A stretch of DNA of 60,651 nucleotides, the filler included, from Hausera hauseri (Eukaryota): assembly GCA_046269625.1 (NCBI GenBank). It is 11 parts of 11 records of this genome, joined end to end, with 100 filler letters (N's around TTAATTAATTAA, not from the genome) between each part and the next. Parts side by side here need not be neighbours in the genome. Positions count along the whole stretch, not along the records: positions 26,381 to 34,678 come from JBJURY010696548.1; 10 more parts are not named here. One strand, given 5' to 3'. The stretch's first letter is position 1. Every line of letters begins with the position of its first letter. A model generated the notes under the pieces. That model made no database searches. It was not told where the DNA came from and saw only the letters and a list, made by a program, of their open reading frames with translations. Made by a program: the position numbers and the translations under genes. Shown here in pieces: positions 6,957-52,653 of this stretch.

Positions 6957-7056
6957 NNNNNNNNNNNNNNNNNNNNNNNNNNNNNNNNNNNNNNNNNNNN
7001 TTAATTAATTAANNNNNNNNNNNNNNNNNNNNNNNNNNNNNNNNNNNNNNNNNNNN
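6957..7056. other. Artificial scaffold linker (44N-TTAATTAATTAA-44N)
   Basis: The same 100-bp linker recurs at 11178-11277, 15574-15673, 20213-20312, 26281-26380, 34679-34778, 39157-39256, 45666-45765, 50180-50279 and 54687-54786. Confidence 0.98.
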
Positions 7057-26380: not shown

Positions 26381-27045
26381 CGCTATTAGTTATGTAAGTA
26401 CTTTGAGAATAGCTAACGTAGCAAAAGCCAAAACAGTCGCAGAACGCAATGCTGCGGAAAAGGCGACTCTGCCAGATTTAGACGTCATGATGACAACTCA
26501 GTTAATAAATAGCATATGGTCAAAAGATCTAATTAAACAGTTAATTTTGGCCAGATCCGACAATTGTGAGAAAACGTTAAAATTAGCCCAAGACTTAGAG
26601 ATGGAATTGAAGAGATATGCCAAACAAGGTGATAAATATGGAAAAAATAATGACCGCAATAATCGAAATAGAAACGAGGACCAAGACAACAGATGATTTA
26701 ATGATAATAACCGAAGCCAAGGTTTTTATAATATGAACAGAAATCAAAAAGACAATAGAAATTTTAGTAATAAACGGAATACATTCAGCTCATATAATAA
26801 ACCGGGTTATAGTCCTGACAGGAATCAAGGCAGTTACCGACTAAATAATACATATACGGATAATCGGAATAATGAAAATAGATATGACGAAGATAACAGA
26901 CAAATATCACAAAACCAGAATAAAAATGTAAACAGATCAAAATCACCTTTGAATATAAATGGCCGACAAAGGATTGGCCGAAATGGGAATTTAATTTGCT
27001 TTACATGCGGTAAAGAAGGACATATTGCTAGATAATGCCCAAATT
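26381..27045 (+). pseudogene. gag: Gag C-terminus with N/R-rich linker and CCHC knuckle
   Basis: TLKLAQDLE; LICFTCGKEGHIAR*C; ORFs 26403, 26733 and 27084 share one frame. Confidence 0.85.
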
Positions 27046-29897
27046 TTAGAAGTGTCGCATTCACTGAACCAAACAAAACTAGTATGATTAAAAATAGCTT
27101 AGAAGCCATCAATGGTAAACGAGGTGATATAAGTATGATTATTGAAATGCAAGATTTGCGTAGGTCCGTAAGGAATCTAGGCGAAACTACTAATCCTGAA
27201 GTAATTAAGGCTAGAAAAGAATACGAAGAGAAATTACGGTTACTGGAAGTCTATCACGGACTAAGAGAACCACAAACCGAAGAAGAATATGCACTAGCAC
27301 AAAATAATACAAATATGGCGCGCAAAAAGTCTATTCCGCAACCAATAGCCCAGTCGGAGAAACAAACGGTATTTCAGATTGTAGATTTAGATGCAGAAGT
27401 CAAAAAATATAATCCAGACAAAACAACAGATGGAATTGAATGCAAATTTATTGGGCCTTCAGTTCTCAAAATAACGAAAAATAAGGGCAGAAGCCCATCG
27501 CCTAAGAGAAAATCTAAGACTCGCTCAAGATCTCCCATTAAAAAGGACGTGGAAGGAAAAGGAAACTTGTATACCGCTATCTTATTAGACTACTCGCCTT
27601 TAAATACGCCCGAAAGGACTTTAGAAACGTTGGAAACACCAGACATGATAAACATTAATAACGAAATCAATGAAATTTGTCCACTTCCCACTAGTGTGGA
27701 AGAAACGGAAGATGATAATAATATTGATGCAAAAAATGGAAAGTTCGACGTTCATGGAAGAATGCTGATGAACTAAAGAGAATAAGAATTAGACGTCACA
27801 ACCCGGAGGTACTCCGACACAATTTAGAAAGACTTAAACAGATCAGAAAACAAGCAGATATATCTGGTAAAGAGCAACAATTTGCGGAGAAATTATATAA
27901 AAATTTGAAATTATGCAGCGAAGGAAAGCTCGACGAAGCAATCGAATTAAGACAACCCGAAGAAGTGCCACGAGATACATTGATGAAATGAAACCATGAA
28001 TTAGAGTTATGAATTAAAAGTGGAATCAAATTTTCGGAAGGATGGAGTATAGACGAAGATAGTACCGATGTAAAAGCAGCTGAAGTTCAAACACTACTAC
28101 CGACCTTAGAAGCTAATCCAAAGTTGAAGAGAGTAGCCCGTAACTTAGAACGTAAGATGAATGAAACCCGTAATGCAATGATCAACCGGCTTAGAGAAAA
28201 ACTGGTTAGTATTCGAAAGGATACTGATTTAGAAATATTGGGTATATACCCGATAGATATTCCTCCCCTAATGGAGATGATAAAAATTGCCTTTACCGAA
28301 CCCTGACGGTATACGAATTTAGAGAATCGTATTAAAATGAAGAATGAAAGAAGGTCACAGATCAGCAGTTTGAGAAATCGAATTATGTTAGTGAATAATG
28401 AAGAAACCGGATATATAATAAAGGCATGCATCACAGAATTCGATGAATATAAGGATGAGTTCAACTATATTAGCCAGATAATAAATTTCATAAAGGGTCC
28501 AGATGACGAGCTAAAGAATGCATATAAGTTGCTAGACAAAGCAGTATTAGCAAAGCCAATAATAGCCAATCAATTGTCAGAATGGTCCGAACTAACAACG
28601 AAAGTAAGTAAATTAGTAGAAGACCGTAAGAAAGAATTTCCAGAAAGTGAACAGTCTGTAAAAAAGCAATTAGAAGAAAGTGCACGTAATTTAAATACTA
28701 TACAAACAGAGAAAATATCCAAACGCAATTTGAAGCCTTACGAAGGCTAAATTTTATGAAGAAGAAACAAGAAGAAATGATATTGGAAGATATATATATA
28801 AATGATCGAAGAAACAAACTTTACAGAAAAGCAAAATATGAGTTACAATTTTTACTCAAGATTAAGAAACATCCGACGGGAAGGATTCCAACATTTAACA
28901 GATAGACCTATTGACGAGATTTCAATCCAGGATATCGAAGCCTTAGATATTTGTCCAAAACATAGAGCAGCCCTAACAGAAGCAGTAAGGTTCTTACACA
29001 AACCACGAAAATGGATGGCCGGTACATATCAGAATTGTCATACCGAATTGACGAAAATAAGAAACAACCAACGTCTTAGTGTCGAAGAATCTAAGTTAGT
29101 AAAGAAATTGCTGGATGCAATGGATCCCGACTCAAAAGTTATAAATAAGATGTATGCGTTAGCCTACTTATTAGTAGAAATGGCGGCGATTAATTATGAG
29201 AATATGAGGCAATTGGTGCCCAAATTACAACAAGTTGAAGAAACGTGCATCAGAACGAAACAATGAGCAACAAGGTTAAATGAACTAGTAAAAGAGTTTG
29301 AAAGCTACAGGAACAAATACGCCTTTACGGAATCAGAAATTAAAGATAAGTTAATTTGTACAAAGATTGCAAAGGGATGTAGTTATGGAGCTAACCGATT
29401 ATCACCAAAAAGGATTCATCAATTCTAACGAGTTAGGCGAACTACTGAAAATGATTCAATATGCCTGTGGAAACGGAATAGGTTTCCGGACTACACAGAT
29501 GAAAGAAATACAACCAAGACTGAAAGAAATTTGAGAGAATGTACAGAGAACGAACGCAGCTTTATTAGACTACGGACTCCCAGAAATTTGGAATGAACCC
29601 CAATGGGATGCTTATTTAGAAGCAATAACGGCCGAAAATCCGTTAACTCCGGTACATCTAAACGAAAGAGAAATGTATCCGCAGAAGAGAAGATTCAATA
29701 TGGAAATGCTCCTGGACTCAGCGTTAACCGAAATATAATTGATTAAACTAATTAACGTAAAAAATTTTGAAAATAAGCTAAGACAACTTATTCCGACCTT
29801 CACTAAATTATCTAGTGAGAACACAATTTACAGCGCGGTGCCGAAACTTTTGATGAAGAAGTATGCGAACATCTTGGGGGCTAAGCCTAAGGTAACG

Positions 29898-30119
29898 ATG
29901 AAAGTAATGGTATCATCCGAGTGGATGGCAGAAAAGGAATGTAAGCTAACTACTTATTCCTACGTAAAGGACGTAAGAAAATGGTTATTATATAATGGCG
30001 GAACAAACGAGCTAAATTACAGATTTTACTTTAGAGAAAGAATACTCGACGATTTAGAACAGTTAATAGAGGTTGGAATTATTCCCGACGAAACAGATCG
30101 AACATTGGTAGTAATAGTC
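29898..30119 (+). other. Ubiquitin-like domain inside the retroelement polyprotein
   Basis: Gapless register with ubiquitin: M1, V23, V26, L30, G35, R42, F45, L50, D52, L56, I61, then TLVVIV. No terminal GG. Confidence 0.72.
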
Positions 30120-30298
30120 AATGAACAGAAAAAGGAAGAAGCCAAGCGTAAGGCTAAGACTGAACAATGTGTAGGGCAAATCATGAGAGTACGAGATGCT
30201 GCGATGTATTTTGAGTATTTACAAATGGATGAAGCAAGGAACAATACGATAAGAATTTAGTGCCATCGAGTGGAATAATGATTAATGTCCCAAGACCA

Positions 30299-30325
30299 AA
30301 ACGCCCAGTCGGTAGGCCTAGAAAA
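30299..30325 (+). other. AT-hook motif
   Basis: KRPVGRPRK. Confidence 0.55.
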
Positions 30326-30841
30326 GCCCGAGGAGAAGCGGACAACAACAGAGAATTGATTAGAGAATTGAGGCAAATGCCAATTTCCACTTTCAGTACG
30401 GATATTGAAGAATTAAATGAATTAATGAGAAATTTAATAGGAATCGTAAATTATTCGAGCCTTCGGGGAGACACATTAGATGAGAAAAAGAAAGCTATAT
30501 TTAACGCAGCTAGGACAATAAGAAGTTCACATTTCAAGTTATCCAAAAGTAACCCAACTGACGACGCAGTAGTTGAAAAAATTGTGGTGGAGAATACGAC
30601 AGAAGATCTAAGGAAAGTATTATTGTACTTGGCAATCAAGACAAATCCCAATCGAGAAAATGAATTCAATCGAGCTACAAGCTTGGCACGGAAAGCGGAT
30701 AGGAAGCTTTCCTGCAAAGTAAATTGCCCAAGATTATTTGGTAAGGAAGAAGAAAAAAGAACCAATAGCAACAGTAGGCTCGAAGACATCATACGTAACT
30801 TGACGACAACAGAAAATAACAACAGGAAAAATAAATCTAAT

Positions 30842-32944
30842 TGGTTAATTAGCTTACTCACCATAATGATGTTAATAAAACAGATGGGTGCTGTTACTTT
30901 CTACGACTGTGATAGATTTAAGCTTGGGCAAAAACATTCACTAATGGACTTAGAGGTATGTGAAGATAACAGATCACATAAATTGGAAACAAAGGAGAAG
31001 AGTTACTTCCTGTACCAACAACAAGAGTTGATATCTTTGAACGGCATGGAATGTATATTGAGACAATACCGTAGCATTTTCCATTGTGGATTAATGCATG
31101 TACGTTCCTCGATAATCAAACCGACGACTCCTCCAATTCCAATGAATTTGAAAAGATAACACTGCAAACAGGCTCGAGAGACCGAAAGACTAAAATGGAA
31201 TAGTATGGAACTAGAGATGCAGCCTGAAAAGATAATTAGAGCATATAAGATAGTAGTCGGCAGACTAGATATGCATAATGGGCAATGTAGCGGAGCAGAA
31301 TACGTCACCGGAAAAGGATTGGAAGAAAACGTAGTAGTAATAGACTTTTAAGAATCGGAAATGCGAGTCCAGAAAGTGATGTCCCATAGCGTAACTAAAT
31401 TATATACCGAGAATCAAAAATGTCACATACAGGACAGCACCTGTGATTTTGGAAGTTCTGTCGTAATATGGGAACCACCCGCTGGAAAAGGCTGTAACTT
31501 TATTAAGATTAAGGAACCGAAATTTACCGAGACTACCGGAAAACGATACATAGACAAATCCGATGTCAGTTCAAGACCACGTGAAGACGTACCAGAGCAT
31601 CATACACCTACGATATTAATCTCGGATCAACATGGGTTAAAATTCATAAAAAGGAAATGATTTTCCGTTGTAAAGTGGTAATGTCCACTACTAACTGTGA
31701 AGCGTTCATCGTCGCAGAAACGGAGATAAACGCAAAAACATACAACTTGGAAACGCAAGAAATTCGAATCGAAGATTATCTGAAAAACCAAGACGATTAT
31801 TTTTATTATAAAGGACAAGTCGGGATAGCCGAACTATACCACAACATGATAACTAATGATTGCAAATTGGATACGTAGATTATGAGGACAAAATTAGCTC
31901 TTATTTGTGCAAATCCTGAGCTAGCCTCACCGATTATTCCCATGAGAAAAGGAATCTTTGGTCGAGTTACTGGCGAAGTTCTACTGACATATGAGTGCGA
32001 GAAAAGAGACGTACCAATTAATGTCGAAGAAAAACGATGTATTCAAGAGCTTCCTATGATCTATGAGAATACTCCACGGTTAGCCATTCCCCTCAAGAGT
32101 ATTGCTAAACAACGCAACACAACCTACAATCTTAAAGGATTGTAAGACAAGTTTGGGTGAGCCAATGTTTAGACGTAGCCAAACAGATTGGATTAGCTTA
32201 CCAAATGGAGGTATCACGATCGTTCCTAAAAAACTGACTGGAACTAATTTAGCGAAAGGAATTACCCACGACAAGTTTCAGGATACGTCACAAAAGGGCA
32301 TTTGCAGACCCAAAGTAATCGAAGCTTTTAGACAATTTTTCGCTTTTCCACGGCAGCAAACACACGAATTAAACCGAGCAATAACATCAGTGGTAAATGA
32401 TACCCTTTATCAGGCTAAATGAGAATCTTTACTCGGTGCGAATCATTACCAACGGGTGACCACCGAAATACTCTACAAAATATGTGGAAGATTTTTAATT
32501 TTTGGACGAGCCGCATCTGGATTTTTAGCAATTTATTTCTTGATACAGTTAATAAAAGCAGTAATTCAGGCGGTTATAAATCGATATGAAATATTTACGC
32601 TAATTGGATTTTCTTGCAAGATTTTAACTACAATTATCACACCGTTCGGCAAAATTCTTAAAGCCTACGAAGAAAATGGGTGGAAAAATGACGTTGAAAG
32701 CCATGTCGGCTACCGTAATTACAAACGACGAGCAAGACCCACATTTCTATCGAAACGTAAGGATAACAAATTAACAACACAAAGAGATAAGTCCGATGAT
32801 GACGAGCCTAAGGGAGCAGAAGCAATCCTCAGACCAAATAGACAAAAAATGTATTCAGTAATTAAGTTACTTTTACCCACCATTCCGCAGACAGCTCCAA
32901 TATATGAAGACTGCGACAGAACATTTATGATGTCATACAAATAG
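30842..32944 (+). pseudogene. env: Chuvirus-like (class III, gB-related) envelope glycoprotein
   Basis: Signal WLISLLTIMMLIKQMGA|VTFYDC..SLMDLEVC..LYQ..C..RSIFHCG; GQCSG; VVIWEP..C; ELYHNMITNDC; GRVTGEVL..C..V.INVEEKRCIQELP; DCK..PMF..W; TM region FLIFGRAASGFLAIYFLIQLIKAVI..GFSCKIL. Confidence 0.85.
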
Positions 32945-33319
32945 GAAACTCATCGAAAACCCTTCAGCTATAAAGATCCTTGTGAAGGAACAAAACAATA
33001 CGGAGTATTAAAGAAAATGCAAATCACTAATCAGCGACGGGCGGAAGATGACCATAAAATATTGTACTCACCAAGAATAGCTCGTAATATAGAATCAAGA
33101 TCGACAGTTTGGGAAATATAAGGAAGGGAATCACTCCAAAACCCAATAATACAATAATCATTAATTAGAAACAACACAGGTAGCATAGAAATCAACAACT
33201 TATACCCTAACGAAGAAATAAAACAGTTGACCGAAAATATTATTTCATCACCCAAGATAACAATAAACGGACATAAGATTTCCTCAATTAAACGACCGAA
33301 GGACATATCGAGTTGTTAT

Positions 33320-33650
33320 GGAACAATTATGGAAGGAAGGCCCTTCACAAAAGTTACCATTGAGGACTGGGAAGTCTATGCCTTAATCGACACCGGATCA
33401 GAAAAATTGTTTAACAAATTAGAATCAATACCACAGACACTACGAAAACAACTGCAGCCGGCATCATCGTCAGATCCAAGCAGCATAGGAGCCTTCGGGC
33501 AAGAATCTAAACCGAAATTTAAGTAGAGTCCCTTATTTCAATTAAAGGGTCAAATCCTTCGACACGAGTTTGCCATAATGGGTCAAATAACCGATGATGT
33601 AGTGTTAGGTTGCGATATATTGAAACAGTTGCCCAATATCGCAATAAATT
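33320..33650 (+). pseudogene. Retropepsin aspartic protease
   Basis: RPFTKVTIEDWEVYALIDTGSE ... DDVVLGCDIL; same frame as the env C-terminus. Confidence 0.88.
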
Positions 33651-34049
33651 TACATACGGGAAAAGTGCTTGAACTCGGACCAGTGAAGGGGATTAAAACA
33701 ATGAAAGAAAGGAAACTAGGAGAAATATAGATCCCTGTCGACGAAAATATTCTGCCCAAAACCGAAATGCTAATTTATGTTTAAATCCGGGAAGAAGACG
33801 ACCAACCAGTATACTATGAGCCACAGGACGATGTTAACCCAAATATCATACTCAGTAACATTTTGACAAGAGTGGTGACCGGTCGAGTATTAATTAGGTT
33901 AGTGAATAATGCACAATCACCGTAAGGTTGTATGCCAATACTTCATTGGACCATACTTGTAAGGTATCGGCAATAACAATCGAAGAAAAACCATACAAAT
34001 ATGCTGAGTTTCCACCCCACGTTGAAACGAAGTTTTCACCAGAAGCATA

Positions 34050-34678
34050 TTGTCAATTTTATGAATTACTATGCAGATATAAATCGATTATTGCCCAAAG
34101 TGAACAGGATATAGGTAGAACAAAACCTTAAGGTTAACCATTCCATTAAAAAAGAAACCTGGTGCCAATGATGAAATTGATTTGGAAAAGCAAAAGATGC
34201 CTAAATGGCACCCATCGCCTCATTCACTAGGGCCCGAAATAACTAAATAGGTAGAACATATGTTTAAGACCGACATAATACGACCAAGTTACAGATTTTG
34301 GTACTCACGAATACTTATGGTCAAAAAGAAAGGCACCACTAAACGTAGATTCTGTATAGACTGTCGAGCTCTGAACACCCTTATGATGAAAGATTTATTC
34401 CCACTACCATCAGTAAAGGAAGCATTAGACAGATTATCAGGAGCAAAGTGGTTTACCGCGCTGGATTTACAATCAGAATACTGGCAGGTAGAAATCGGAG
34501 AAGACGATAGTTATAAAACAGCATTTAAAACGCACGGCGAAGTCTACAAATTTAAGATTATGCCATTCGGTATAACAACCGGCCCAGCTATCTTCACCAG
34601 AATGATGAATAAAATGTTAATTGGACTCGATCACGCGTTTGCCTATCTAGATGATGTAATGATAGCATCAAAAACAGA
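34050..34678 (+). pseudogene. pol: Gypsy reverse transcriptase, truncated by the linker
   Basis: DIGRT, IIRPS, RFCIDCRALN, FPLP, FTALDLQSEYWQV, KTAF, MPFG, AYLDDVMI. Confidence 0.93.
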
Positions 34679-34778: not shown

Positions 34779-37700
34779 AGATGTTTCGTTGCCATTATAT
34801 TAACAACGGTTTGCAATCAATCTGTATAACAAAATAATGAGCTGTAAGTAAATGGGAAAAATGTCCTAAAGCAAGAACGATTGCCAGCAGTTCCCAATCG
34901 AAAGTTGAATATCTAGTTTCGGGTGGTATTAATTTTCGAGAAAAGAATTCTAGAGGCTGGTTTTCGCTTTTATACAACTGATGTAGTACGGCGCCTACTG
35001 CGATGTTTGATGCATCTGTGGTAAAAATTAGCTCAGCGTCAGGCGTAGAAAATGCTACTATTTCAACAGTCTTTAGTCCATCGCGTAGCCTATCAAACCT
35101 GTTAACCAGTTGTGGTATCCACTGGATTTTCTGGTGTTTTTTCCTCCGCTTAAGTGTGCAAAAGTGCCGTGAGTTCCAAACAATATGGGATATATTTGTG
35201 GAAGAAATGCAAGGTGTTAAAAAAGCTGCGCATTTCTGTGGTTGTCCTATGTAGTTGGACGTTTTCAAGAGTCTCAACTCGATCAGGCTGAGGTAAATGG
35301 CCGTATGATGAAATAATATGTCCAAGAAAATTAACGTTTTTGGAAGAAGTTACATTTTGCAAAATTGATCTGTAGGTTGAACTGATAAAGTCGTTTAAAG
35401 ATAGATCGTAGATGTTCTTCGTGTTGTTTAACAGAAGAAGAAGCAACCAAGATATCGTCAATATATGGGTGTGCAAAAGGGAAGTCTGAAAGGATTGAAT
35501 CGACGTATCACTGAAAAGTCTGCGCAGCATTTCGGAGACCGAAAGGCATGTACAAGTACTGATAAAGACCGAAAGGTGTGGTAACTGCAGTTTTCTCGAT
35601 GTCTTCCGATGCGACAGGAAGTTGGTAGTATGCTTTGGCTAAATCAATTGTTGAATAAACTGTAGTCCTTCTCGTATTCTATCGAATTTATTGACTAGTT
35701 GTGGTGTCCACACGATTTTCTGGTGTATTTTTTTCCTCCGCTTAAATGTACAAAAGGTGCCGCGAGTTCCAAACAATATGGAATATATTTGTGGACGAAA
35801 TGCAGGGTACAGAGAAAACTGCGCATTTCTGTTGTTGTCTTAGGTAGTTGGACATTTCTAAGAGTCTCGACTCGATCAGGCTGAGGTATATGGACGTTTG
35901 AAGAGATAATATGTCCGAGGAAATTAACGCGTTTCTAAAAGAAGTTACATTTCGCAAAATTGATCTGTAGATTGAACTGGTTAAGTCGTTTGAAGATAGA
36001 TCGTAGGTGTTCCTCGTGTTGTTTAACAGAAGTAGAGGCAACCAAGATATCGTCAATATATGGATGCGCAAAAGTGAAGTTTGAAAGGATTGAATCGATG
36101 TGTCGGTGAAAAATCTGCGCGGCATTATTGAGACCGAAAGGCATATACAAGTACTCATAAAGACCAAAAGGTGTGGTAACTGCAGTCATCTCTATGTCTT
36201 CCGGTGCGACAGGAATTTGGTTGTGAGCTTTAGCTAAATCAATTGTTGAATAAACTGAAGTAGTATCAAGCCGATGTAATATGCCTTTGATTAATGGTAG
36301 TGGATATGCATCCATTATGGTTAAAGTATTAAGCTGGCGGTAATCGCCGCAAGGTCGGAAGGATCCATCCTTTTTTTGGACAACATAGATAGGCGAAGAC
36401 CATGGGGATTTAGATCTAGGCGCAATACCTGATTTTTCGAGTTCGAAAAATTCGCCTCTACTGCATGCCTGCGACGAGGTGACAATGGATGAACCTTTTG
36501 TTGAATTGGTCTTTGATGTCATGTAATTATATGGTGGTAAATGTCGTTTACAGGGGTGAAGTCCCGATCTTTCTGAAGTATACAAGGATAAGAAGTATGG
36601 ATGAATTGTTGTAAACTTGCGGTTAGATGCTGGAATGTTGTTAGAGACAGTGAACCAAGGTTGCTAACAGTACTTGGTATAATGTGGTTGGTTGTTGATG
36701 AGGAATCGGGTGGGATTTGGAGTAGGATGGTCTGGTCCGGAACCCTATTTTAGTGGGTGTTGTTGTTCAATGATTTTATTGAAAATACCAGATCGTGGAT
36801 GTCGACATTGATCTGCGATTGGCTGTCGACATTGTTCTATGGAAGCTTACGATGTAAAACGTGATAGTTATTGGAATTATAATGAGGTACTGACTGTTTT
36901 AAAATAGATTATCTACTTACTGTTAACTGTGTTGTCGTTGGGGTGTTGTGTATTCCTGTGCTACGGTCTACAGGTGTATTCGATTTCAATAAGCGGCGGT
37001 TACAATCGACTAGCAAATTATAGTGCGAAAGGAAATCGGAGCCAAGTATTGCTGTCTGGACGTTAGTGACTGTAAACGTCCAATGGAATGAAGAGGAAAA
37101 TTTTGGTAGCGTGAAAAATAATTTGAAAATTCCCTCAATATGGAGAGGTTGACAGGAGGCGGTGTATAAAGGTTTTATTTTAGGTGAAGAATGCTGAACC
37201 GGAAAAGAAAGTGGTAGAAGGGAAAAATCGCTGCGCCAGTATCGATAAGAAAGTCTAAGGATTGAATGTTAGGATTAGAGATAGCAGCTTTTAGTGTAAA
37301 GACTGAAAATGACGTGTGTCGGCAAGACGAATTAAGTAAGTTGCCTTTGCCAGAATCTGCCGAGAATACTGGCGGCAAAATCAGTTTTTCGGATTGGTGA
37401 GTTAGAATGGTTATTGTTAGAGAAATTGGAACGTCTATCAGTGGTGTAGTTATTGTTAGTTTTGTAGTTACAGCCGGAAATACAATTCCGAGCATTAGAT
37501 CCAAATTTTGCATTATAGATGCAAACTATGTTATCCGAGTGTAGATTCGGCGAATAATATCTACACCCTAAACAGCATTTATTTGCTTTGTTATTAAATT
37601 TATTGTGATAATAACATAAATGCCCGCGCTGGTGACGGTGTTCGATTTCTGGAAAGAGAGGCGAGGAAGCATTCCGTCGATGTAAGGAAAGGTCATTCAG

Positions 37701-38704
37701 CTTATCATTGATGGTGTTGATTGTAAGTTGTAGTGCCGCATTTTCGGCGCGTAAATGGTTCAATTGGTGTTCGACAGATGTATGACGTTGATTGTCGTCA
37801 GTCGTGATTGCAGCTGATATGATGGGCTGTGATTGTATTTGTAAAACTTCATGTGCTTTATCGGTCAATTCAGCTAGCTTATCTAAGGCTGTAGAATCTT
37901 CAACTACGGTAAGTAAAGTTCTAATTTGAATGTGTAATGCGTTAAGGAAATATCGTCGAAGTAAATCAGGGTTGTGTTCCTTGGTCACTCCTAGAGTACG
38001 TAAGCCAACAAGGTACGTAAGAAATCACTAGGTTTTTGTGTCCCCATTGCATTTTCATTAAAGAAGCGTTGTATTATCGAATCAATTGATGGTTCTTTCA
38101 GTTTTAATACAGCATTGAGCAATTGAGTATAAAGGTCAGGGTGTTGAAAGATGTCCAATAAGTTATGGATTGGGGCCTTTATGGAGTTTGGCAGAAGGTA
38201 AAGTAGATTATGGGCTTTGGATAACGAGTCTGTAATACCGTTGGATTGTAATCAGCGTTGATGTAAGTGGAGCCAAGTTTTGCCAGAATTTTCATTCAGA
38301 GCAATGTGGAGTGTAATTGTGGAATTTTTGTGAAAAGAGTTAGATTCGGCTGATGTAGGTGGATGGTTTGATTTGGGATAGTAAAGAGTGAATTTGGGTT
38401 TTGTGGTCACCTTATCTGTGATGTCACTGGTTGGTGAGGAAATCATACCGCCGCGGATTCTAGGGTGAATGTGTATACAGAGGTAGTATTGTGAGGACAT
38501 GATGTATGGGAGGTCAGTTAAAATGAATCCATTGTGAGTCAAATAGAAGTCATTGAAGGCGGTAGCTTTATGAATGAGATCATATAATTGTATTGTATCG
38601 ATACATTGTGTTATATGAGCGGTATGTATTAATTTATTATTAACAAAAAGGTGGATGGAAAATGACGGTGATAAACAACAAGCTGGGTAGTGTGGTATAT
38701 CCAC
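34779..38704 (-). mobile_element. CsRn1-like Gypsy element (UBL-gag-protease-RT-RNase H) with an internal RT duplication
   Basis: Gag MGTQKPSDFLR, LDKLAELTDK; CHCC motifs CYYHNKF..ANKC..GC and CIYNAKF..ARNC..GC; FLIDTGA; RPCGDYRQLN, MPFGL, PYIDDIL; TTDASN, PLEFFSRKL. Confidence 0.9.
38447..38656 (-). other. Ubiquitin-like domain ending RIRGG, directly N-terminal to the Gag Met
   Basis: IHLFVNNKLIHTAHITQCIDTIQLYDLIHKATAFNDFYLTHNGFILTD...LCIHIHPRIRGG|MISS. Confidence 0.75.
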
Positions 38705-38794
38705 ATATTTTGTCTCGTGTCTTGTAGCTGTTGAGTGAGCCGTTGAAAACGTGGTTCTACCCCGACCGGTCCCAATTATCGAGACAAGTTTAAT

Positions 38795-39156
38795 TCAATC
38801 AGTGAACACGGCCACAGGTGTGGTAAGACCCAAAGCTTTCCTTTTTGCAATCAACTCCATTACTTTCACGTCAAGGAACTTTTTGTATGCATCTAAAATT
38901 TTATCGCCTTCATGATCAATAACTTCATCTGAATCTTTATTTTTATCGAAATTTTTAGAATTAAAACACCAGTCCTTGTGTATATGTGGATCATCACCAA
39001 ATAATGCCGAGCCAAATATTAGGTCGGCTTCATCAAGACCTCCATCAAGAGTTATTGCAGCTATCACTGCTTCAAAAGCATCTGATCTGGCATGGGTGAT
39101 TGTTGAGTCGTATGATAAATCAGTATTATGAGTGTAGAGTAAAAATTTATGTAAAC
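38795..39156 (-). pseudogene. drosha: Drosha-like RNase IIIa domain fragment
   Basis: LHKFLLYTHNTDLSYDSTITHARSDAFEAVIAAITLDGGLDEADLIFGSALFGDD parallels Drosha FMLYAHGPDL...RHAMANCFEALIGAVYLEGSLEEAKQLFGRLLF. Confidence 0.78.
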
Positions 39157-39256
39157 NNNNNNNNNNNNNNNNNNNNNNNNNNNNNNNNNNNNNNNNNNNN
39201 TTAATTAATTAANNNNNNNNNNNNNNNNNNNNNNNNNNNNNNNNNNNNNNNNNNNN

Positions 39257-40091
39257 TTTCGGTATTTTCTTATGGCGACGCCTTGCACAGCTAAGGTTTA
39301 TACAATTTTGTCTCATGTGCCCCTGCTGACCACATCCGTAGCATCTTATTGGTTATCTTTCGGGGCACTGCTTGTTTATATGTCCTTCTTTTCCGCATCC
39401 AAAGCATTTAATCAGCCCCCATGTGATGCAAGTTCTGTTCGTATTTCCTTCCTTCTGACGTCCAACACTTTAATCCACTATTTGGTGGTCTAGTTGCAGT
39501 CATGTTGGCTCTAAGAACAGGTTTCCTGATATTTCCAGTTCCCACTTCCTGGTAGCTTCTTCTACCGATCCCTTGATACTCTTTGACCGTGTTGATTTCT
39601 TCTGTCTTAATCTTTTCTTCGTGTATCCGTATTTTCTCCTTTATGGTTTGCGCGTCTTTTGTCACTGAGGCATATCTCTCTTCTCATCTTTTTACTGTTA
39701 CAACATTGGGACAATAGTTCCTCTTTTAGAGTCTCGCGTGAAAAATTGTGTTTCATAACTTTATCCAGCAGTTTTTCGATTGTCTCGAAGTCAGCCTCCG
39801 GGTCTGCTCCAATCATTTTGTACTCGAGTGCTTCTTACAGATCTTCGCACAGAGTTGGGGGTCTGGCGAAAGCTTTCGTAGTCGGTTTTGATATTCCGTT
39901 ATCTTCGCATCTACTGCCTCGTATCTTTGTTGTGCTTCTTCCACCAAGAGACATTCAACCATGATTTCCCTCTTTGCCGCTGGGGTGTTCACATATCTAA
40001 AGAATTTCTCACATCCCTTAGTAAACTTCTCCACGTCGTCGTCTTTCTTTGAACTTGTTGGGCAGAAATTGGTTAGTGAAAATATCCATTA
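39257..40091 (-). pseudogene. gag: Gypsy gag fragment
   Basis: VEKFTKGCEKFF...REIMVECLLVEEAQQRYE; frameshifted and rich in coiled coil. Confidence 0.55.
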
Positions 40092-40271
40092 TGGCGCAAG
40101 TTGCCATGTTAGCCGCGGGCGCGTCTACGCCGTCCACCTCGTCACCCAGCTTGGCTTGGGCTGAAAAATTCCTGCTCCTGTGTGTCAGCTAAAGCGGAAT
40201 TTGACCGTTTGCAATTACTCATTGAAAAGTTAACACCGGTTGTTGAAAATTTTATTATTGTCTTAAAATAC

Positions 40272-41015
40272 TCATTTCAAAACAAATTGGGCTGTTTTAA
40301 ACGTGAATCGTTTCCCGTATAGGTAATGGTTGAAATGTTGACAGAAATAATACATTGCCTGTAGTTCTTTCCGACTTATACAATATCCTTTTTCACGGTT
40401 GTTTATTGTGTGTGATCCGTACTTAATTACTCTCGCGCCACAAACTATCTTTCTGTGAGGATAATTTATCTGTAGAAATAAGGGAAACATAGTATTGGCG
40501 GTGTGATTAGAGCTCTTTTTATTGACTCCAAGGCCTCGTTACATTGCTCCGTCCATATTAGTTTCTTGTTATTCAGTCCGCATAGTTGCTGCAATGTCTT
40601 CGTCTTTGTTCCGTAACCTTGGATAAATCTTATGTAATAGTTGCAGATCCCTAAGAAACTTCTTAAATTCTTGACATATTTTGGTTTCTCAGAGGACTTA
40701 ATTGTTTCCTGCTTTGATGGGTCTGTCTGTTTCATCTTGTCATTCATTATATTTCCTAAAAATTTTACTTCTTTCTTGAGGATGTGACATTTCTCTGGGT
40801 TTACGCTGAGACCTGCTTCCCTGATCTGCTACAATACCTTCTCTAGTATCCTACAATGCTCTTATACAGCCTTAAAAATGATTAGTATATCATCTACGCA
40901 TACCACTGTTTGTTCAATGTCCCATAGTACTTTATTTATTAGTTCTTGGACGGTGCCCGCGGCTGCTGCTATACCAAATGGCATCCTTTTGAAAGAGAAC
41001 TGTCCTAATGTGGTG
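40272..41015 (-). pseudogene. pol: Gypsy RT-RNase H fragment
   Basis: FKRMPFG, AGLSVNPEKC, LRSFLGICNYY..FI, ITPPILCFP, REKGYCISRKELQA..FNHYLYGKRF. Confidence 0.88.
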
Positions 41016-41017
41016 CC

Positions 41018-43620
41018 CATAGCGTTGTACAAAAAAGAACTATACTTTTAGACCATGTGGTGACTACCGACAGTTGAAGAACTTGACCATCATGTATGCC
41101 TACTCCTTACCACTCATCAAGGCCATCCTACATCGCCTTAATTCAACTACCATATATTCGATTATCGATTTAGCCAAAGCATACCACCAAATACCGGTGG
41201 CACCCGAATACATAGAAAAAACCGCTGTCACTACTCCTTTTGGCCTCTATGAGTACCTGTTTATGCCACTCGGCTTGCGAAATGCCGCCCAGACTTTCCA
41301 GCAACATGTCGACTCAATTCTCTCAGATTTTCCATTTGCGCACTCTTACATTGATGACATTCTAATTGTTTCGTCTACGGTCAAAACACAAGGAACACCT
41401 TCGCGCAATATTCCAACGCCATCACCACCATAATCTCCAAGTCAATTTCGACAAATGCCATTTTTCAAAAAACGCATCAACTTTTTGGGCCACGTTGTTT
41501 CACCAGACGGCGACTCTTCGCAACCAGACCAAGTTGAAGCCCTTAAAAATATCCAGTTACCATATACGACCACCGAAATGCGCAGCTTCCTTGGAACACT
41601 ACACTATGTATGTATGTGCATAAATATGTACCATATTGCTCCGAATTGACAGCACAATTTGCACACTTAAGCGGTGGCAAAATATATTAGCCAATCCAGT
41701 GGACACCTGAGTTGGTAGACAAATTTGATAAGTTACGAGAAGGAATTAAGACCCAAGCCTGATGCAGAACTCATCCTTACTACAGACGCTTCAACCACTG
41801 CGGTAGGTGCTGTACTCTACCAGGTCTACAAAGGAGAATATCAACCGCTAGAATTTTTCGCTCGCAAGCTAGATACTCAACGTTCGATCGATAGTTATTG
41901 GTCATCGTTCTTGCTTTAAAGCATTTCTCCCACCTACTTGTCGCTCGCCATTTTACCATACAAACCGATCACAAACCCTTACTTAACATCATGACTATGA
42001 AACATCCTTCACACTCCAAAAACGACAGATATCATACTTTTTGACATTTAACTTCGACATAAAACATATTAGCGGGTTTAATAATTTAGTTGCTGATTTT
42101 TTATCTAGGTCGATTAGTTCGATTAATTTTTCACCGATTTTTACACAGGTTTAACTTCAACAGAATTAGCCACCTTAAGACATGTTTAATTCTTTCAAGT
42201 CTTGCACAATTGTTGATGGCGTGGCTTTAGACACTTCCAAACCAGGTCATCCCATAATAATTCTCGCACCATCATTGCAAAGGCAAGCATTTAGTAGTGT
42301 ACATTCGCTACACCACCCTGGTGCTAAAGCCACTTCTCGTTTACTCCATGGACAAGTAATATGGCCGACAATGCGTTCTGATGTGCAGGCATCGGTTAAG
42401 GAATGTGTGGCTCGCCAAAAATACAAAACAACTAAACATTTAAAGCCACAACTATTCCACTTCCCCTTCACATCGCGTTTCGAATCCGTGCATATCGACA
42501 TCGTTGACCCTGTTCCTCCAGACAACGGTCATCAATTCATTCGCACCATGATGGACCGTTCCTCGCGATGGCCAGAAGCCATCCCTCTGCGGAGCACGAA
42601 CACCGATACCATAGGTGACGTTTTCATTCGCACATGGATTAGCAGGTTTGGATCACCTCGCTTCATCATCACGGACCAGAGTCCACAGTTGGAATCCAAA
42701 CTGTTTAAATATCTTGTTAACCGATTAAGGATCCATCACATACATACTACGCTTTAACATCCCCAGTCGAATGGCCTCCCAGAACGCTTCCACCGAACAT
42801 TGAATATGTCACTAAGAATCGTTGCAGAGTCCAACACTAGTTGGACGAATCTTCTTCCGTTTGTTCTGCTTGGCTGGCGGGACACTCCGTCTACTTCTAC
42901 GGAATGCTCACCTACCGAAGCCTTATTCGGAGCTCCTGTACTATCATTGTTCGAACTAACTGCCCTAGCGACACACCTTCAGATGAAACGATACGGGCGG
43001 CGCAAAATCACTTCGGCACGGTCAGCAAAGATTTGTTCTGCAGGATACTTCACAAAGACAAAGCATATTTATCCGAAGACTTGTATTCGTCAAAATTCGT
43101 ATGGCTAAAAAATCAGACGCCCTGCGGTTTTCAGCCGCGGTATCTGTGGCCCTATAAACTGATACAGCTGCATTCACATAATGCTACTATCTCTAAAGAC
43201 GGCAAAAAATTTACGGTACATATTACCAACCTAAAGCCCGCCTTCTTCGTCGACGACACTGTACCAATCGACACGTCAAACCCTTTGCTCACTCCTAAAC
43301 TTCCTTCTATTCCTATTTCCATCGCTACACCTGTTCCACCTCCTCCTTCTGCTCCTAGTTCTGCTTTATCATCTTCCACGCCTTCTCCTTCTGTTCCTAT
43401 CCGCCTTCCTATCTCTACCATTACCTCTGTTTCATCTTCTACTTCTACTCTTCCGCCTAATACATTTCCAATTTCCACGACAACTTTCGTCGCCTCCTTC
43501 ATCCGCTACTTCACCTTTTGTCACTCCATTGTTTTCTAACACTCTCTTGAGTGCCTTTAACCATCCGTCTCCAACAATCTCTCTCCCTCCTTCACCTTCT
43601 TCTTCTCTTCATTCTGACTC
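41018..43620 (+). mobile_element. Gypsy pol (RT-RNase H-integrase) closely related to the 34779-38704 element, with an S/P/T-rich tail
   Basis: RPCGDYRQL, IDLAKAYHQIPV, YIDDIL, TTDAST, HSLHHPG, VHIDIV, DRSSRWPEAIPL, ITDQ, HPQSNGLPER, WPYKL. Confidence 0.92.
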
Positions 43621-46600
43621 GTCTTTACACGATACAACAATTACTACAAAATCTGACAAATTTTTCCCCAACTTTAACCTATGCTAGCAAATACCTCGCA
43701 TGCAGACAAACCACGCAGAGTCACATTTAGCATGTATAGCAGGGAAAAATCAGTAGAAGGCACCCAACGTCTTGTTCACACTAAGACCAGCTGACACAGA
43801 CGCTTTCCGTTTGGCGATTTTTTTTACCGTCTATTTTACCCTTCATAATTTCAACCTTGCTACGGGGGAATGATGTTGTGCCCACTGCGGCCGGTGCTTT
43901 TGGCCCATTTGGTTGGGCACGGCCGGGCATTCGCTGTTGCCGCGTCGGCTTAATAGTCGGGTCCAACTCTCCGCCTTATGAATTTAATCCGTCGAATTAG
44001 ACGATAAGATTATCCTTAAATCAGAACCAATACATACAATACTCATCTTTAAAGATGAAATCTATTCCACTCCATGATATAAACAGTAGCCGAGTAATTG
44101 ATGAGCCGTGCCTTTCAAATCACTGCATCATAAGACAGCGGCATAATCCCAGACAGAACGTTAATCCTTTGATGCCAACCCAAAATGATTCTGAAAGTGC
44201 TACGACAAATACAGATTTATTACAGACATACCTTCAAAATCTCATCACGAAACCTAATCGTCACAATGTTTCGAAAGACAATAAAATAACAACGCAACAA
44301 TTTAATTCAAAATCTTTCTCAAAGAAAGAAATAAGTCAGTTGATATATTTCCACAATTCTTCCCAACTGTATGAAAATGTAACAGTTCCAACATTAGAAA
44401 ATTTTGTTTTATCGATAAAGTATCAATGTTCTCTTTCCCGATGTGATATTTATTCATTTTGGTTGACCTTTCCACACCACTAAACAAATCATCGGATATA
44501 TCGATCGAGGAAAAATCATTTAAAAAGTCCACAACAGAATCCAATCCGAACTGAGTTCCGTTGAGCCGATTCAACGAACTTTATCCGCCGAAACTTTCCA
44601 ACAATTTCATCTTATTCTTTAACAACAACGTGGAAATTAATTGTTTAGTTTACTAATGACAGTGGTTTAAAGATGTCTTCAGTTTGTCATGTAGTGCTGA
44701 TAAAAACAGTCGTTGTCAAATATATAATTCTTGATCTTCGGTCGCAAGATTTTCGCAATTACTTTATCATCTATATCCTCAAAGTCAGACTCGAAGTGTT
44801 CGAATTTAAAATCATCCTCGTTAGGAAGCAACATCTACGGCGGTTTAGAAACTCGTTGGCAGTTCTCAGTCATTTCATTAAGACCCGATACCACAACCAG
44901 TTGTACTTTCTAGCCAATTCATCAAATAGCCATATTTATCGTTGTTCATTGGTGTTTAAAATGGTCGATCAGCATCCGTTGACATGAACAAATGGTAGAC
45001 AAATTTGATCTTCCTCGACAACACTCTTATTGTCACATTCCGATAGAGGCAGTGAAAAATATGTTTTCTCAGTGACGAATGGGCAATGTTCTTAGAAACA
45101 AAAAAATCCAAACATTTCAGATGTCGTTCCAAGTCCAAATTTCGGCTCAAGTTTTTCGTCTGATGATCAATAATAAAAACATGTGAGCCATAATAGTTTT
45201 CATACCGTCGATAAAATGTCTTCCAATCCACTCAAATGCCAACGAACAGAAGCCAGAAAACGTGGTCAAAGTGAAATAAAACGAGTCGTTGTGGTGTTGC
45301 CGGATTTGTTGACCCTTTTTGAGACATTTTTTAAAAGTGTACATAATGTTTTGTTTAAATAAAACACAATTTTGCATGTTCAATTTGATTTGACTTTAGC
45401 TTACGTCATATTTTTTTCTTCGAAGAAATCGTCTTTTGCTATTATCAATTATAACTGTCCATTTTTTAAGAATTTGTATCTCGATTGATTTTGCAACTTT
45501 TTTATACCAAATCGTTTATTGGATTTGGTCGATTTGTTGCGTACATATATAAGCATAACTATGAAAATTTTGAATTATTTATTCGAATACCATATTCAAT
45601 TTGATCAAATGATTTTAGTAACAGAATTCGAAATAGAAGGAAAATTTCTGTACGTTACCAGTTTANNNNNNNNNNNNNNNNNNNNNNNNNNNNNNNNNNN
45701 NNNNNNNNNTTAATTAATTAANNNNNNNNNNNNNNNNNNNNNNNNNNNNNNNNNNNNNNNNNNNNGTCAGCTGCTAGGTGTTGTAGTTCTTGCATAGGGC
45801 CTAAATTCATGATTTTACATTCACGCATGAAAGTTCTTCTTATTGTTTCTTGTGGTCTTCCTCTGTACTCGTCTGATCTAATATTCTCAAAGAAAATAGT
45901 GACTAAGTAACTCCTAAGGCGCCCTATCGAAACACTTTCCCCTCATGATAATTTTTAAACGCAGTACGCAAGTACACACCCGTTCGTCTGAACTTTGATC
46001 TGTCAGCATTTCTCAAGCCTGCTAACATATGATAAGCCGAATGCAGGCGGTTAATTTTCAAAAGAAACGCGTTCGGGAATGACCGATCATCACAACCATA
46101 CCTAACATTTATGTTAGCATGCTAACGTTGAGGAAATAGGCACTAACAGTATTGTCTAACGCTGCCTAACAGCGGTGTTTTTTTTCCTTTTGCAGTGGAG
46201 AGCTACTGGCCGTAAAATTCTCGTCGTTTACAAGATTTTTTAATTTCGTGTTTTAAATTTAACATTACATATTATATTCCTTTTATTTTTATATAATCCT
46301 TGTTTTTCTTTTTGTCAGCACTGCTAAATTTGTGAACATGGATGGCCGCCACTGGTTGCAGTCTATTTAGTATTATTTTAAGCATGACTTTGCTTGAGTG
46401 GTTGATGAGACTAATAGTGCGATAATTTTGGTACAGTTGCAGTAACGGGGTGATTATGCATTGAGTCCAATGTGTGGACCATTCTTTGGTATTTCATATT
46501 TTATTACAAATCTGTGTCAGGATTTCAATCATTGACTCTCCTCTAGCCTGAATACGTTCGGCTGGTATGTTGTCAGCTCAGCAATCTTTCCTTGTTTAAG

Positions 46601-49980: not shown

Positions 49981-50319
49981 CTTCCAAAACCTCCATCTTT
50001 GACCTGTGAGCCTAGTGGGACGATACAGGTCTCTTCTTAGGAACGGCAATAGAGTGTAGCGGATCATCATCATTAGTGCCCAAGACCTTTCAAGTCATCC
50101 TCTAGCTCGAACTAAACTACCTCCAATATCCTTAAGATATGCGACTTTAACAGAAAATTTACCCCTTCTATGACCAACTNNNNNNNNNNNNNNNNNNNNN
50201 NNNNNNNNNNNNNNNNNNNNNNNTTAATTAATTAANNNNNNNNNNNNNNNNNNNNNNNNNNNNNNNNNNNNNNNNNNNNATCATTGAGTTAAATCTCGAT
50301 TAATTTCATTTATATTTAG

Positions 50320-51602
50320 ATCTACCGGAATGTATGTTTTGCAGAGCCATTATCACTGAAGTGTACAGATTGACACCATGCCTACATATGGTCTGTTTAT
50401 TTTGTATAGAACAAGTTCGAATACGAGCCCATCCTACACCATACTGCCCTGTCTGCACATATGAAATTAAATACTGTATTCATCATAGTGCATACCCATC
50501 TGACGCTGACCAATCACTACTAGATGTCCCAACCTTCGATGTCATCGAACCTACAGATCATACTACCTATTACTACACCTGGAATATATCCACCCCTTTT
50601 TCTATTCCGAATTTTCAATTGCACATGTGTTGTTTATGTCAAAAACCTAATAGAATAACCTATCAATTTAGTTGTTGCAATGCCGAGTACTGTGCTCATT
50701 GCTATCAACTAGAATCCCATCATCGATACTTAATCTGCAGCATATGTAACTTTTGCCCCCAATTTATTTACGCATATTTCCACCACCCTAGAAGAGCTCT
50801 CCTTACCATTACTAACACACCAATTCCCCAAATACTTCCGACAAGATACTTCCGGTTAGAACAACAGGCATCAGTTAGAATAGAATTCCCAATTCATAAA
50901 TTTGACCCCTCTATAATAACCAGACTACCACCGATTGTTCTTCAAACACCTTTACCTCACATTAATGTTATGACTCTTTTACGACAACCATCTTCAATAC
51001 CACACCCACGCTATCATCCAGAACAAATTACTAGACCATTACCTGAATTGCCAGTACCAGTACCTACAATAATACCCACACCAGCTATTTCTTATAGCCC
51101 ACCATTACCAATATCTTTACAAGAAGATTGGTTTCCTGTCTACAGCAAATGTCCAATAGACCTTATTTCTGACCTAGCCCCTCCTGACTTATGGGCAACA
51201 CTACAATCTCACTACTATGACCAATTTCCCACCTACGAATGTACTATATGCCTTACCGAAAGAATAACAGTAGTTCAATTTCAATGCAACCACAAATTAT
51301 GTGCAACCTGTTTCAACAAACTTCGATCCCAATCTATCAAATCAATCGATCCGGAAGATGCTTTACAGATGACCTTTCAAAACGGCATTTCTTGTCCATA
51401 TTGCCAACAACCATCAGTATACTACCACTTCTATTACACCTACGACAACCGAACCCAAAGACTATGCCATTGGATGAACCCCGTGAACGATGCGACACTG
51501 ACAGTCAAACCCAGAAACCTCAGTTTCATTGATGCCAGTACTCAGAGTGATCCGGAGGACCGAATCCTTTTCAAAGGGGGGAGAAATGTTGAGACGCTTT
51601 AA
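50320..51602 (+). CDS. Intact triple RING-finger protein in the 3' accessory position of an LTR element
   Basis: RING1 ECMFC..CLHMVCLFC..CPVC, RING2 CCLC..CCNAEYCAHC..CSIC, RING3 CTIC..CNHKLCATC..CPYC. Pro-rich linker; no stops over 422+ codons; acceptor-like ttatatttag ends at 50319. Confidence 0.82.
51573..51586 (+). promoter_or_regulatory. Polypurine tract
   Basis: AAAGGGGGGAGAAA immediately followed by TGT, and preceded by GAGGAC....TTTT. Confidence 0.8.
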
Positions 51603-52653
51603 TTGTTAATTGACAGTGACACTTTAATCGAACTTTTCCTTTAATTGTTAATTGACAGTGACACTTTAATCGAACTTTTCCGACAACCTTTTGACAGTGT
51701 ATACTTTTATGATAAATGACAACAATTCACAACTTTGGAATACAAATATTTCGAAACATGTAAAGCCTCCCTGATAGGCGTTTTTATAAACTGTTGGGTA
51801 CGGATTATGTGTGAACCCTTTTTTCGTGTTACAAACTTAATTAAGAAAATACAAATTCGTATCTAATCGAGTCGACCTTTAAATTAAAATTGAGATTATC
51901 AACGCTTAGTCATACTAAAACGAATTTAATTTAAAAAATCGAAGTACAATCTGGTTAGAAGTCAAAGATCACACTTAGTCAAATTTACTAAAACAAACTT
52001 ACAAATCAAGGTACAACATCTTGGTCGGAGGCTGAAGTTCACCAGACCGACGTTGTTGTGTGAGCCTGAAGTAAATCCGAAAATTGAATTAAAAAAATTA
52101 AAGTTCGCCATTAAAGTTCGTCGAATTGACGTCATTGAATGAATTGGTAAATTAAATTGACGTCATTAAATGGATTTGTAAATTAGATTAACGTCATTGT
52201 ACAAATTCAAACCAAGTATAAATAGGCAAAGTATATCGATACCATAATTATAAACACAAAACAAAACTTTTTAAGTTACGATCTGCGATTGCATCGAGTA
52301 TTTACGAAATTATCCAACTTACGTAGGTAAGTTGTTAGACGTTTGGTTTGTTCATTTTTTCATCTATGTCTCAGTGATAAAGAAACTAGCCTCTACTGTA
52401 TCTAAAGTTCTGGTCAATATAAATTTCTGTCTTTGGACGATTCAAATTAGCATTATTGGGTTAAACAAAAACTATACACTTAGATATAATGGCCGAATCT
52501 CGTGGAAATGATACGATTAATGGACTAAGTAAGCAAATTTGCAATTATTTGTTTATTATTATTCGAATGTCACTGTAATATATTTTGCTATTGTAAACAT
52601 TGTTATACAATAAAAGTTATTTACTAATAAATATTGTTGTCCGGTCTCGATCA
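51587..52653 (+). mobile_element. Putative 3' LTR
   Basis: Starts TGTTGAGAC after the PPT. Contains a 42-bp tandem duplication (51597-51680), CRE repeats, TATAAATA at 52217 and AATAAA at about 52609 and 52626. The end GTCTCGATCA is an imperfect inverse of the start. Confidence 0.62.
52122..52224 (+). promoter_or_regulatory. Three 31-bp repeats with CRE cores, followed by TATA
   Basis: TGACGTCA at 52127 and 52158, TAACGTCA at 52189, TATAAATA at 52217. Confidence 0.7.

Follow-up and report, generated by a model that had tools for sequence, protein, structure and literature searches.

A probable ubiquitin-fold domain and an AT-hook-like motif in the Gag-Env spacer of a decayed Ty3/Gypsy element of Hausera hauseri

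A retroelement resident in the genome of Hausera hauseri probably encodes, ahead of its envelope, a ubiquitin-fold domain devoid of the terminal Gly-Gly. The element is a decayed, high-copy member of the Ty3/Gypsy group with a gB-type envelope. The domain lies in the spacer between Gag and Env, and is followed by a basic motif, KRPVGRPRK, which is AT-hook-like and plausibly doubles as a nuclear localisation signal. The estimate for the fold rests on sequence tests, plus published precedent: a ubiquitin-like module in this position has already been described in the planarian Burro elements (2019, PMC6431247), and the hook in the Gag-Env spacer may be the only part not yet reported. According to the reading that we favour, a ubiquitin-like docking or adaptor domain and a basic motif are built into a single gag-spacer-env-pol polyprotein; taken as a whole chain this is a tentative proposal, somewhat short of an even chance.

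Structure and decay of the element

The window, that is the whole stretch of DNA analysed (60,651 nucleotides of assembly GCA_046269625.1), is made of 11 short contigs (4-8 kb) joined by N-runs carrying a TTAATTAATTAA spacer, and contigs adjacent in it are not to be taken as genomic neighbours. One junction lies at 6957-7056, and nine more like it are found in the window. The element resides in the contig at 26381-34678 (JBJURY010696548.1). According to Pfam profile searches all its parts are on the + strand, in the order gag, spacer, env, PR and RT, with zf-CCHC, PF24664, RVP and RVT_1 met consecutively on that strand. The sequence is almost certainly that of a Ty3/Gypsy element of gag-spacer-env-pol architecture. 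Its features are as follows.

26382-27041, + strand: 3' part of gag, ending in one CCHC zinc knuckle split by a stop (zf-CCHC, PF00098)
27042-30844, + strand: Gag-Env spacer, about 1,268 codons (three-frame reading)
29898-30119, + strand: probable beta-grasp domain of the integral ubiquitin-like kind, lacking a C-terminal GG (pattern tests, ESM Atlas, Pfam hint, AlphaFold)
30120-30298, + strand: charged linker, predicted helical, containing the frame break near 30234
30299-30325, + strand: KRPVGRPRK, AT-hook-like or NLS-like basic motif (GRP core; V takes the place of the R of HMGA hooks)
30344-30844, + strand: 167 codons without family assignment, between the hook and the Env signal
30845-30901, + strand: internal hydrophobic segment, likely Env signal sequence (Kyte-Doolittle 1.75; the PF24664 match starts right after)
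30890-32680, + strand: gB-type (Monjiviricetes/chuvirus-like) envelope glycoprotein (PF24664 in three pieces)
33332-33631, + strand: retroviral-type aspartic protease (DTGS), split by a stop (RVP PF00077, E 4e-4, 21.1 bits)
34251-34676, + strand: reverse transcriptase, truncated by the contig end (RVT_1, E 1.8e-22)

The contig limits, deduced from the N-linkers, fall inside the element. The contig begins within gag, and the LTR, the PBS and the capsid N-terminus are all absent; RNase H, integrase, LTRs and PBS are missing here because they lie beyond the contig ends. The zinc knuckle scores 27.3 bits (E 3.5e-6, stops read as X). The envelope matches Monjiviricetes_fusion (PF24664) in three pieces, each above the cut-off (E 1.3e-15, 3.2e-13 and 1e-16), which cover in order positions 6-602 of the 653 of the profile. 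Hydrophobic segments are located at both ends of the envelope, and three overlapping ones follow it at 32492-32647. Among solved structures, the best named relative of the RT is the Ty3-G Gag-Pol protein (E 1.7e-23).

Nine frame breaks were identified by three-frame reading. Five interrupt the spacer, along with stops (near 27770, 28712, 28799, 29384 and 30234), two interrupt the envelope, also along with stops (near 31650 and 32095), and two lie further downstream (near 33913 and 34122). In-frame stops number at least 18, a count which leaves out one 29-codon piece. Stops and frame breaks together rule out a functional gene in the present copy.

Two intervals could not be assigned to families. 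In the region 30344-30844 no Pfam family reached threshold, and no match to Bcl-2 was found at E up to 10; no usable ESM Atlas match was obtained, and PDB sequence matches were weak (best E 0.032). An NCBIfam search gave nothing at threshold. Some 217 codons of no recognised family (32681-33331) separate the membrane segments of the envelope from the protease. The sequence IPQTAPIY, found in this interval at about 32882-32905, loosely resembles a P[TS]AP late domain.

The spacer and its reading frames

The spacer is open predominantly in one frame around the domain, as stops per frame over 29385-30233 number 2, 34 and 20. No transmembrane segment was found in it (hydropathy maximum 1.2), and a hydropathy scan revealed no hydrophobic segment between Gag and 30845. 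Neither a second ubiquitin-like stretch nor an internal duplication was found in the spacer. Its first part (27042-27770), immediately behind the zinc knuckle, holds a strongly basic Ser/Arg-rich stretch, GRSPSPKRKSKTRSRSP, with a net charge of +11 in 30 residues, and then an acidic stretch. Upstream of the knuckle there is a low-complexity tract rich in Asn, Arg and Asp.

In the present copy the way from the Gag zinc knuckle to the domain is interrupted by several stops and by the frame breaks near 27770 and near 29384. We infer that the two were nonetheless parts of one polyprotein in the intact element, which is likely, and that the domain was thus carried on Gag, as the earlier sequence-only reading of this DNA had assumed.

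The stretch was found in one public run, which contains 24% of the sampled words; this run may be the source of the assembly or a near relative, and is hence not independent. As many as 19,436 of its contigs fall on the element, 9157 of them less than 90% alike, and cover all 30 bins in which the element was divided, domain included. As an example, one 383-letter contig spans 29621-30003 gap-free, crossing the stop at 29736 into the domain. These contigs are short, and an intact copy cannot show in them. Six of the nine frame breaks coincide with length differences listed in the run, and that at 30234, between domain and hook, does so in 11 contigs, which makes it probably damage sustained by this copy or branch. 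No length difference is listed for the other three (near 27770, 29384 and 31650) among the best 12 of 13 rows. That near 31650 is damage beyond doubt, as the match to the envelope profile runs on past it.

The near-fixed differences bear indirectly on constraint. At least 40 were found (40 of 2001 differing places), and they fall 14, 24 and 2 times on codon positions 1, 2 and 3 (p 2e-5 versus one third), with positions taken in the frames assigned here and with a dependence on the row ranking of the tool. All nine of these places that lie in the spacer are on codon positions 1-2; the domain holds one of the 40. In our reading the other copies agree with one another at positions 1-2 and vary at position 3, a pattern indicative of purifying selection, spacer included, and suggesting that the spacer is constrained coding sequence.

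The ubiquitin-like domain

The domain is contained in a 173-aa ORF (29739-30260). A 74-codon stretch starting at 29898 aligns gap-free to a natural viral ubiquitin, taken from 117 domains drawn from 121 fetched loci, and the best gap-free ubiquitin register of the ORF starts exactly there. The sequence-only reading had described a gap-free match of about 74 residues, supported by nine core positions. Eight of the nine are indeed identical to ubiquitin (V26, G35, R42, F45, L50, D52, L56 and I61), and at position 30 the element has L, ubiquitin I. Yet the match is satisfactory without gaps to about position 61 only, as the last strand can be aligned only by inserting three residues, and overall identity amounts to 11 of 74 residues. 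The missing C-terminal GG, noted in the same reading, was fully borne out: positions 75-76 read N-E, and the frame runs on beyond. A conjugatable ubiquitin is consequently ruled out, the Gly-Gly being absent. Changes also affect the residues which we take to form the hydrophobic patch whereby ubiquitin binds its partners (L8, I44, G47, H68 and V70). L8 is replaced by E, I44 by Y and G47 by E in the gap-free register, H68 by V and V70 by I in the gapped alignment.

Whether so divergent a stretch is a ubiquitin fold was assessed in different ways. Scored by BLOSUM, the register at 29898 ranks first among the 7395 stop-free stretches that the window contains, and 46 out of 2000 shuffled versions of the ORF scored as high. 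A core/surface pattern, hand-picked after the alignment was viewed, is matched at 14 of 16 core and 18 of 20 surface positions; none of 5000 shuffles reached both values, and 90 of 5000 reached that of the core alone. A pattern derived from 23 aligned ubiquitins is matched at 44 of 60 columns, the top value among 7218 stretches. As good a match was scored by 44 of 5000 shuffles; in natural retroelement proteins it was found for seven stretches out of 70025. When an insertion is allowed, the score rises to 45 and the register is tied with one other stretch. All in all, p is about 0.01-0.02 in the two pattern tests that were not hand-picked, and the register is top, or tied top, in three; the likeness exceeds chance, though by a modest margin.

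In the ESM Atlas all five named cluster sets among the matches listed are ubiquitin-fold (among which PF00240 at 0.91, Rad60-SLD at 0.88 and TUG-UBL1 at 0.87), though 23 of the 30 matches, the top one included, are unnamed small proteins. The best named match has 149 of 256 features in common, below the 170 typical of same-family matches, and first matches of 0.9 occur for 4-10 per 100 shuffled proteins. In Pfam, the best-fitting hint for the isolated domain is UBX (PF00789), with 13 bits against a cut-off of 21 (E 0.12); an unrelated prenyltransferase family scores alike. A UBX domain was rejected, as the score is below the cut-off and the FPR loop, the signature of UBX domains, is absent. 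No PF00240 or PF11976 row was obtained, and the Pfam check proposed for ORF 29739-30260 turned out negative, since no ubiquitin family reached threshold. A PDB sequence search returned no ubiquitin-family chain among its matches; the designed PPR proteins that it returned were discarded as relatives of the domain, being artefacts of summed repeats.

The outcome of structure prediction was mixed. AlphaFold, run on the domain without an alignment, places strand, strand, helix and strand at ubiquitin-like places, so that the first four elements are arranged as in ubiquitin, but pLDDT is 46, the last strand is unformed, and the beta-grasp is not confidently modelled. The model of the 173-aa ORF (pLDDT 34) is unusable. 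Searches by Foldseek and VIA-align, which started from the weak model (pLDDT 46), returned nothing at E 0.001 or at Z 5, and are uninformative. Profile methods were negative. A ubiquitin HMM scored -0.6 bits, with 2221 of 3000 shuffles equal or better; hhalign gave a probability of 0.2; the glocal alignment score was under the shuffle mean, 1671 of 2000 shuffles being as good. The HMM had been built from 23 of the 117 viral domains, chosen below 90% identity, and its failure is weak evidence because the profile is narrow. A non-conjugatable ubiquitin-fold domain, in line with the non-cleavable one advanced in the sequence-only reading, is thus likely in the light of the pattern tests, the Atlas and the UBX hint, though a confident beta-grasp model did not emerge.

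Relatives of the 173-aa ORF were searched. None was found among 25 and 426 candidates, nor, at E 0.001, among 1.84 billion representatives; a pattern search gave 8 viral and 389 metagenome matches, none of which proved to be a relative. Viral matches were nil also for the hook-Env ORF (0/19) and the RT (0/7). None of 81 loci from the RT alignment (one viral plus the best 80 of 467 metagenome loci) matches any spacer or env piece by tblastn. A genome scan for ubiquitin relatives returned near-canonical ubiquitins only, which were left out of the HMM profile. Bacterial and archaeal assemblies (loci L122-L201) gave near-canonical eukaryote-type ubiquitin genes, 87-97% identical to a viral ubiquitin. 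Many of these reside on contigs shorter than 1 kb, and are likely contamination; some are found on long contigs, as L145 and L169.

The AT-hook-like motif

KRPVGRPRK (30299-30325) is the sole match to GRP[RK][KR] in the six frames of the window. What defines an AT-hook is a GRP core with basic residues and prolines as its flanks, and the RGR core of HMGA hooks inserts in the DNA minor groove (PMC11354804). The core and its basic and proline flanks are present here, in the context PRPKRPVGRPRKAR at 30290-30331. The AT-hook called in the sequence-only reading is therefore retained for the GRP core and the basic flanks; it is weakened by VGR, which replaces the RGR core, and by a score of 11.5 bits with the Pfam family AT_hook (PF02178), the cut-off of which is 17.4. 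Two basic residues, GRP and two further basic residues were found in four of 5000 shuffles of the 2723 residues of the element, a looser pattern in 85 of 5000, both patterns having been chosen after the motif was seen. The spacing from the domain, given as about 60 codons in the sequence-only reading, comes to 59.7 codons: in the present copy the hook lies in ORF 30233-31159 and the domain in another frame, a difference on which that reading is silent, the break near 30234 falling between them. The hook is 173 codons upstream of the Env signal, and no membrane segment lies in between.

Some AT-hooks have been shown to bind RNA (PMC11354804; PMC4615771). The motif has in common with the hooks of HMGA and LEDGF/p75 the GRP core flanked by K/R and P; it differs in having V for the first R of RGR, in being present in a single copy, and in remaining under the Pfam cut-off (PMC11354804). 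A literature search by title and abstract turned up no such hook in the Gag or the Env leader of a Gypsy element, though other papers on Burro-type elements, their supplements or the Repbase entry may mention further domains, a hook included.

Known elements of similar layout

Planarians harbour the giant LTR retrotransposons Burro and GYPSM1, which are Gypsy-like (Arkhipova and Yushenova 2019, PMC6431247). In a single ORF they encode gag, then cargo modules (a Ubi2/SUMO-like domain, PF11976, is one of them, Bcl-2 another), an env which continues the frame and is reminiscent of mononegavirus fusion glycoproteins, and pol. The authors propose interference with host ubiquitination (PMC6431247). 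The claim that these are not standard Gypsy domains thus holds for ordinary Gypsy elements, but not across the group, a Ubi2/SUMO-like domain between gag and env having been published for Burro. The element described here shares with Burro a gag CCHC knuckle, then cargo with a probable ubiquitin/SUMO-like domain, an env of the mononegavirus fusion type and PR-RT, as well as a very high copy number and decayed copies with stops and frameshifts (for Burro, in Dugesia japonica). In contrast to Burro, in which two or three knuckles occur, one was seen here. Pfam revealed no BIR, ankyrin, MATH, RING or Bcl-2 domain in a spacer of about 1,270 codons, and no dUTPase between PR and RT (E up to 10), though decay and divergence may hide both. 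The term AT-hook, in turn, has no occurrence in the article text of PMC6431247. The element works like a compact Burro-type element, yet it is not classified as Burro, these cargo domains and the dUTPase having gone undetected.

GAG-ENV-POL errantiviruses with HSV/gB-type Env are on record in Nematoda, Bryozoa and Platyhelminthes (Chary and Hayashi, eLife 2026, PMC13524379). The gag-env-pol order, the PF24664 envelope and the Ty3/gypsy RT are in common. That article covers intact elements, whereas the present copy is broken and its ends are cut by the contig; "ubiquitin" and "AT-hook" do not occur in the main text. Further afield, the domain resembles the integral ubiquitin-like domains of Rad23/Dsk2 shuttle factors, UBX proteins and Rad60 (SUMO-like) in being a probable beta-grasp within a longer chain that lacks GG. 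It differs from them in that no family threshold is reached and no UBA domain or FPR loop was recognised here, and from ubiquitin in the surface used to bind partners.

Proposed role and alternatives

Given a ubiquitin fold, an adaptor role is an evenly balanced proposition, made by analogy. The domain cannot be conjugated, having no GG, and would thus work like the integral ubiquitin-like domains of shuttle factors. Domains of this kind usually dock on proteasome receptors or p97. According to this reading gag, spacer, env and pol would be translated as one polyprotein, with Gag and spacer in the cytosol, the envelope in the lumen, and Pol in the cytosol again. Gag and spacer would stay cytosolic because no transmembrane segment precedes the Env signal (30845). 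The latter would tether the Gag-spacer piece to the ER until signal peptidase and the element protease cut. Meanwhile the domain would bind host proteasome or p97 partners, and binding would determine how the piece tethered to the membrane is turned over, extracted or released. The basic motif would most likely be the nuclear-import and nucleic-acid-binding signal of the released piece.

That the likeness to ubiquitin arose by chance, or reflects another small alpha/beta fold, the spacer being ordinary divergent accessory sequence, is unlikely. Identity is low, the HMM, hhalign and glocal tests are not significant, the unbiased pattern has its p of 0.01-0.02 for one ORF, while a reader scans many, and the rate of high Atlas matches among shuffled proteins points the same way. 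Against chance, three tests of different construction all place one register first (with a tie in the insertion version), every named Atlas set is ubiquitin-fold, and the location fits that of the published Ubi2/SUMO-like domain in elements of like gene order. Still less probable is a separate accessory or Env-leader gene outside Gag, whose product would act on host pathways apart from the capsid. The frame shift near 27770 directly follows the stop of the Gag frame (27774-27776), no length difference is listed there, and a Dugesia tigrina relative has the Burro domain in a separate accessory ORF (PMC6431247). Yet the silence of the table means little, since the env break near 31650, a certain one, is also unlisted; six of the nine breaks do match listed length differences, and Burro-type elements are single polyproteins (PMC6431247).

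Two further alternatives concern what the domain does. Fused ubiquitin can substitute for retroviral late domains, and the domain might be a built-in ubiquitin mimic which draws in ESCRT and so does the work of a late domain in budding, an improbable option that takes up the budding idea of the sequence-only reading. P[TS]AP, PPxY and YPxL motifs are absent from the main frames of the present copy, and the domain would be cytosolic and membrane-tethered. However, late motifs may have been lost by decay, there is no sign that the family buds, and the hydrophobic patch read by the ubiquitin-binding domains of ESCRT is changed. Domain and hook may alternatively form a regulator of the Rem/CERV kind, in which the pre-Env piece, freed by signal peptidase and extracted from the ER by p97, would enter the nucleus by means of the basic motif, bind the element RNA and export it. 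The position of the hook, well ahead of the Env signal and with no membrane segment between, would suit such a product. Moreover, p97 extracts the MMTV signal peptide (PMC5371415), Cer1 of C. elegans encodes its own export factor, CERV (PMC10309623), and RNA is a known ligand of some AT-hooks (PMC11354804; PMC4615771). The boldest version of this scenario sees the whole front of Env as a giant Rem-like leader made of captured parts, a ubiquitin-like handle for p97 and a hook for the nucleus. The ubiquitin-fold handle would allow p97 to extract the signal-anchored piece from the ER, and the AT-hook-like motif would bring it to the nucleus, there to bind element RNA or to tether element DNA to AT-rich chromatin. 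If so, a self-releasing nuclear regulator would be encoded within a Gag-Env-Pol polyprotein. Both versions proceed by analogy and are doubtful, the odds being well against either: neither a nuclear export signal nor an oligomerisation domain was identified, and the UBX match is below threshold and without the FPR loop.

If the fold is true, the Burro pattern, ubiquitin-system modules set between capsid and envelope, extends to a family without a detectable sequence relative in the collections searched. Retention of such a module would then seem to be a recurrent trait of gag-env-pol elements, one that answers some need of a polyprotein threaded, unusually, through the membrane. Both the domain (74 residues) and the motif (9 residues) are small and stop-free, and bear on the remark on host ubiquitination made in PMC6431247.

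Other sequences in the window

Two more Gypsy-type elements lie at 34779-45665, with no sign of a PF24664-type envelope. A tandem duplication of about 590 bp is found in pol at 35062-36229, and the segments 35422-35666 and 41146-41390 are 74% complementary. The fragments at 409-867, 2801-3517 and 11409-11981 encode dUTPase and protein-primed DNA polymerase B, one of them with an endonuclease VII-like zinc domain, and are probably Polinton/Maverick remains. At 15956-20190 a single contig hosts two ORFs with overlapping matches to the DUF4457 profile (KATNIP-type) and an ORF with a dDENN domain, then further long ORFs. These pieces of host genes have no evident introns, and may be captured or retrocopied mRNA. 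Finally, an uninterrupted ORF of 432 aa at 50304-51602 carries a C3HC4 RING finger (E 7e-6), and a perfect 42-bp tandem duplication (51597-51680) is located behind it.
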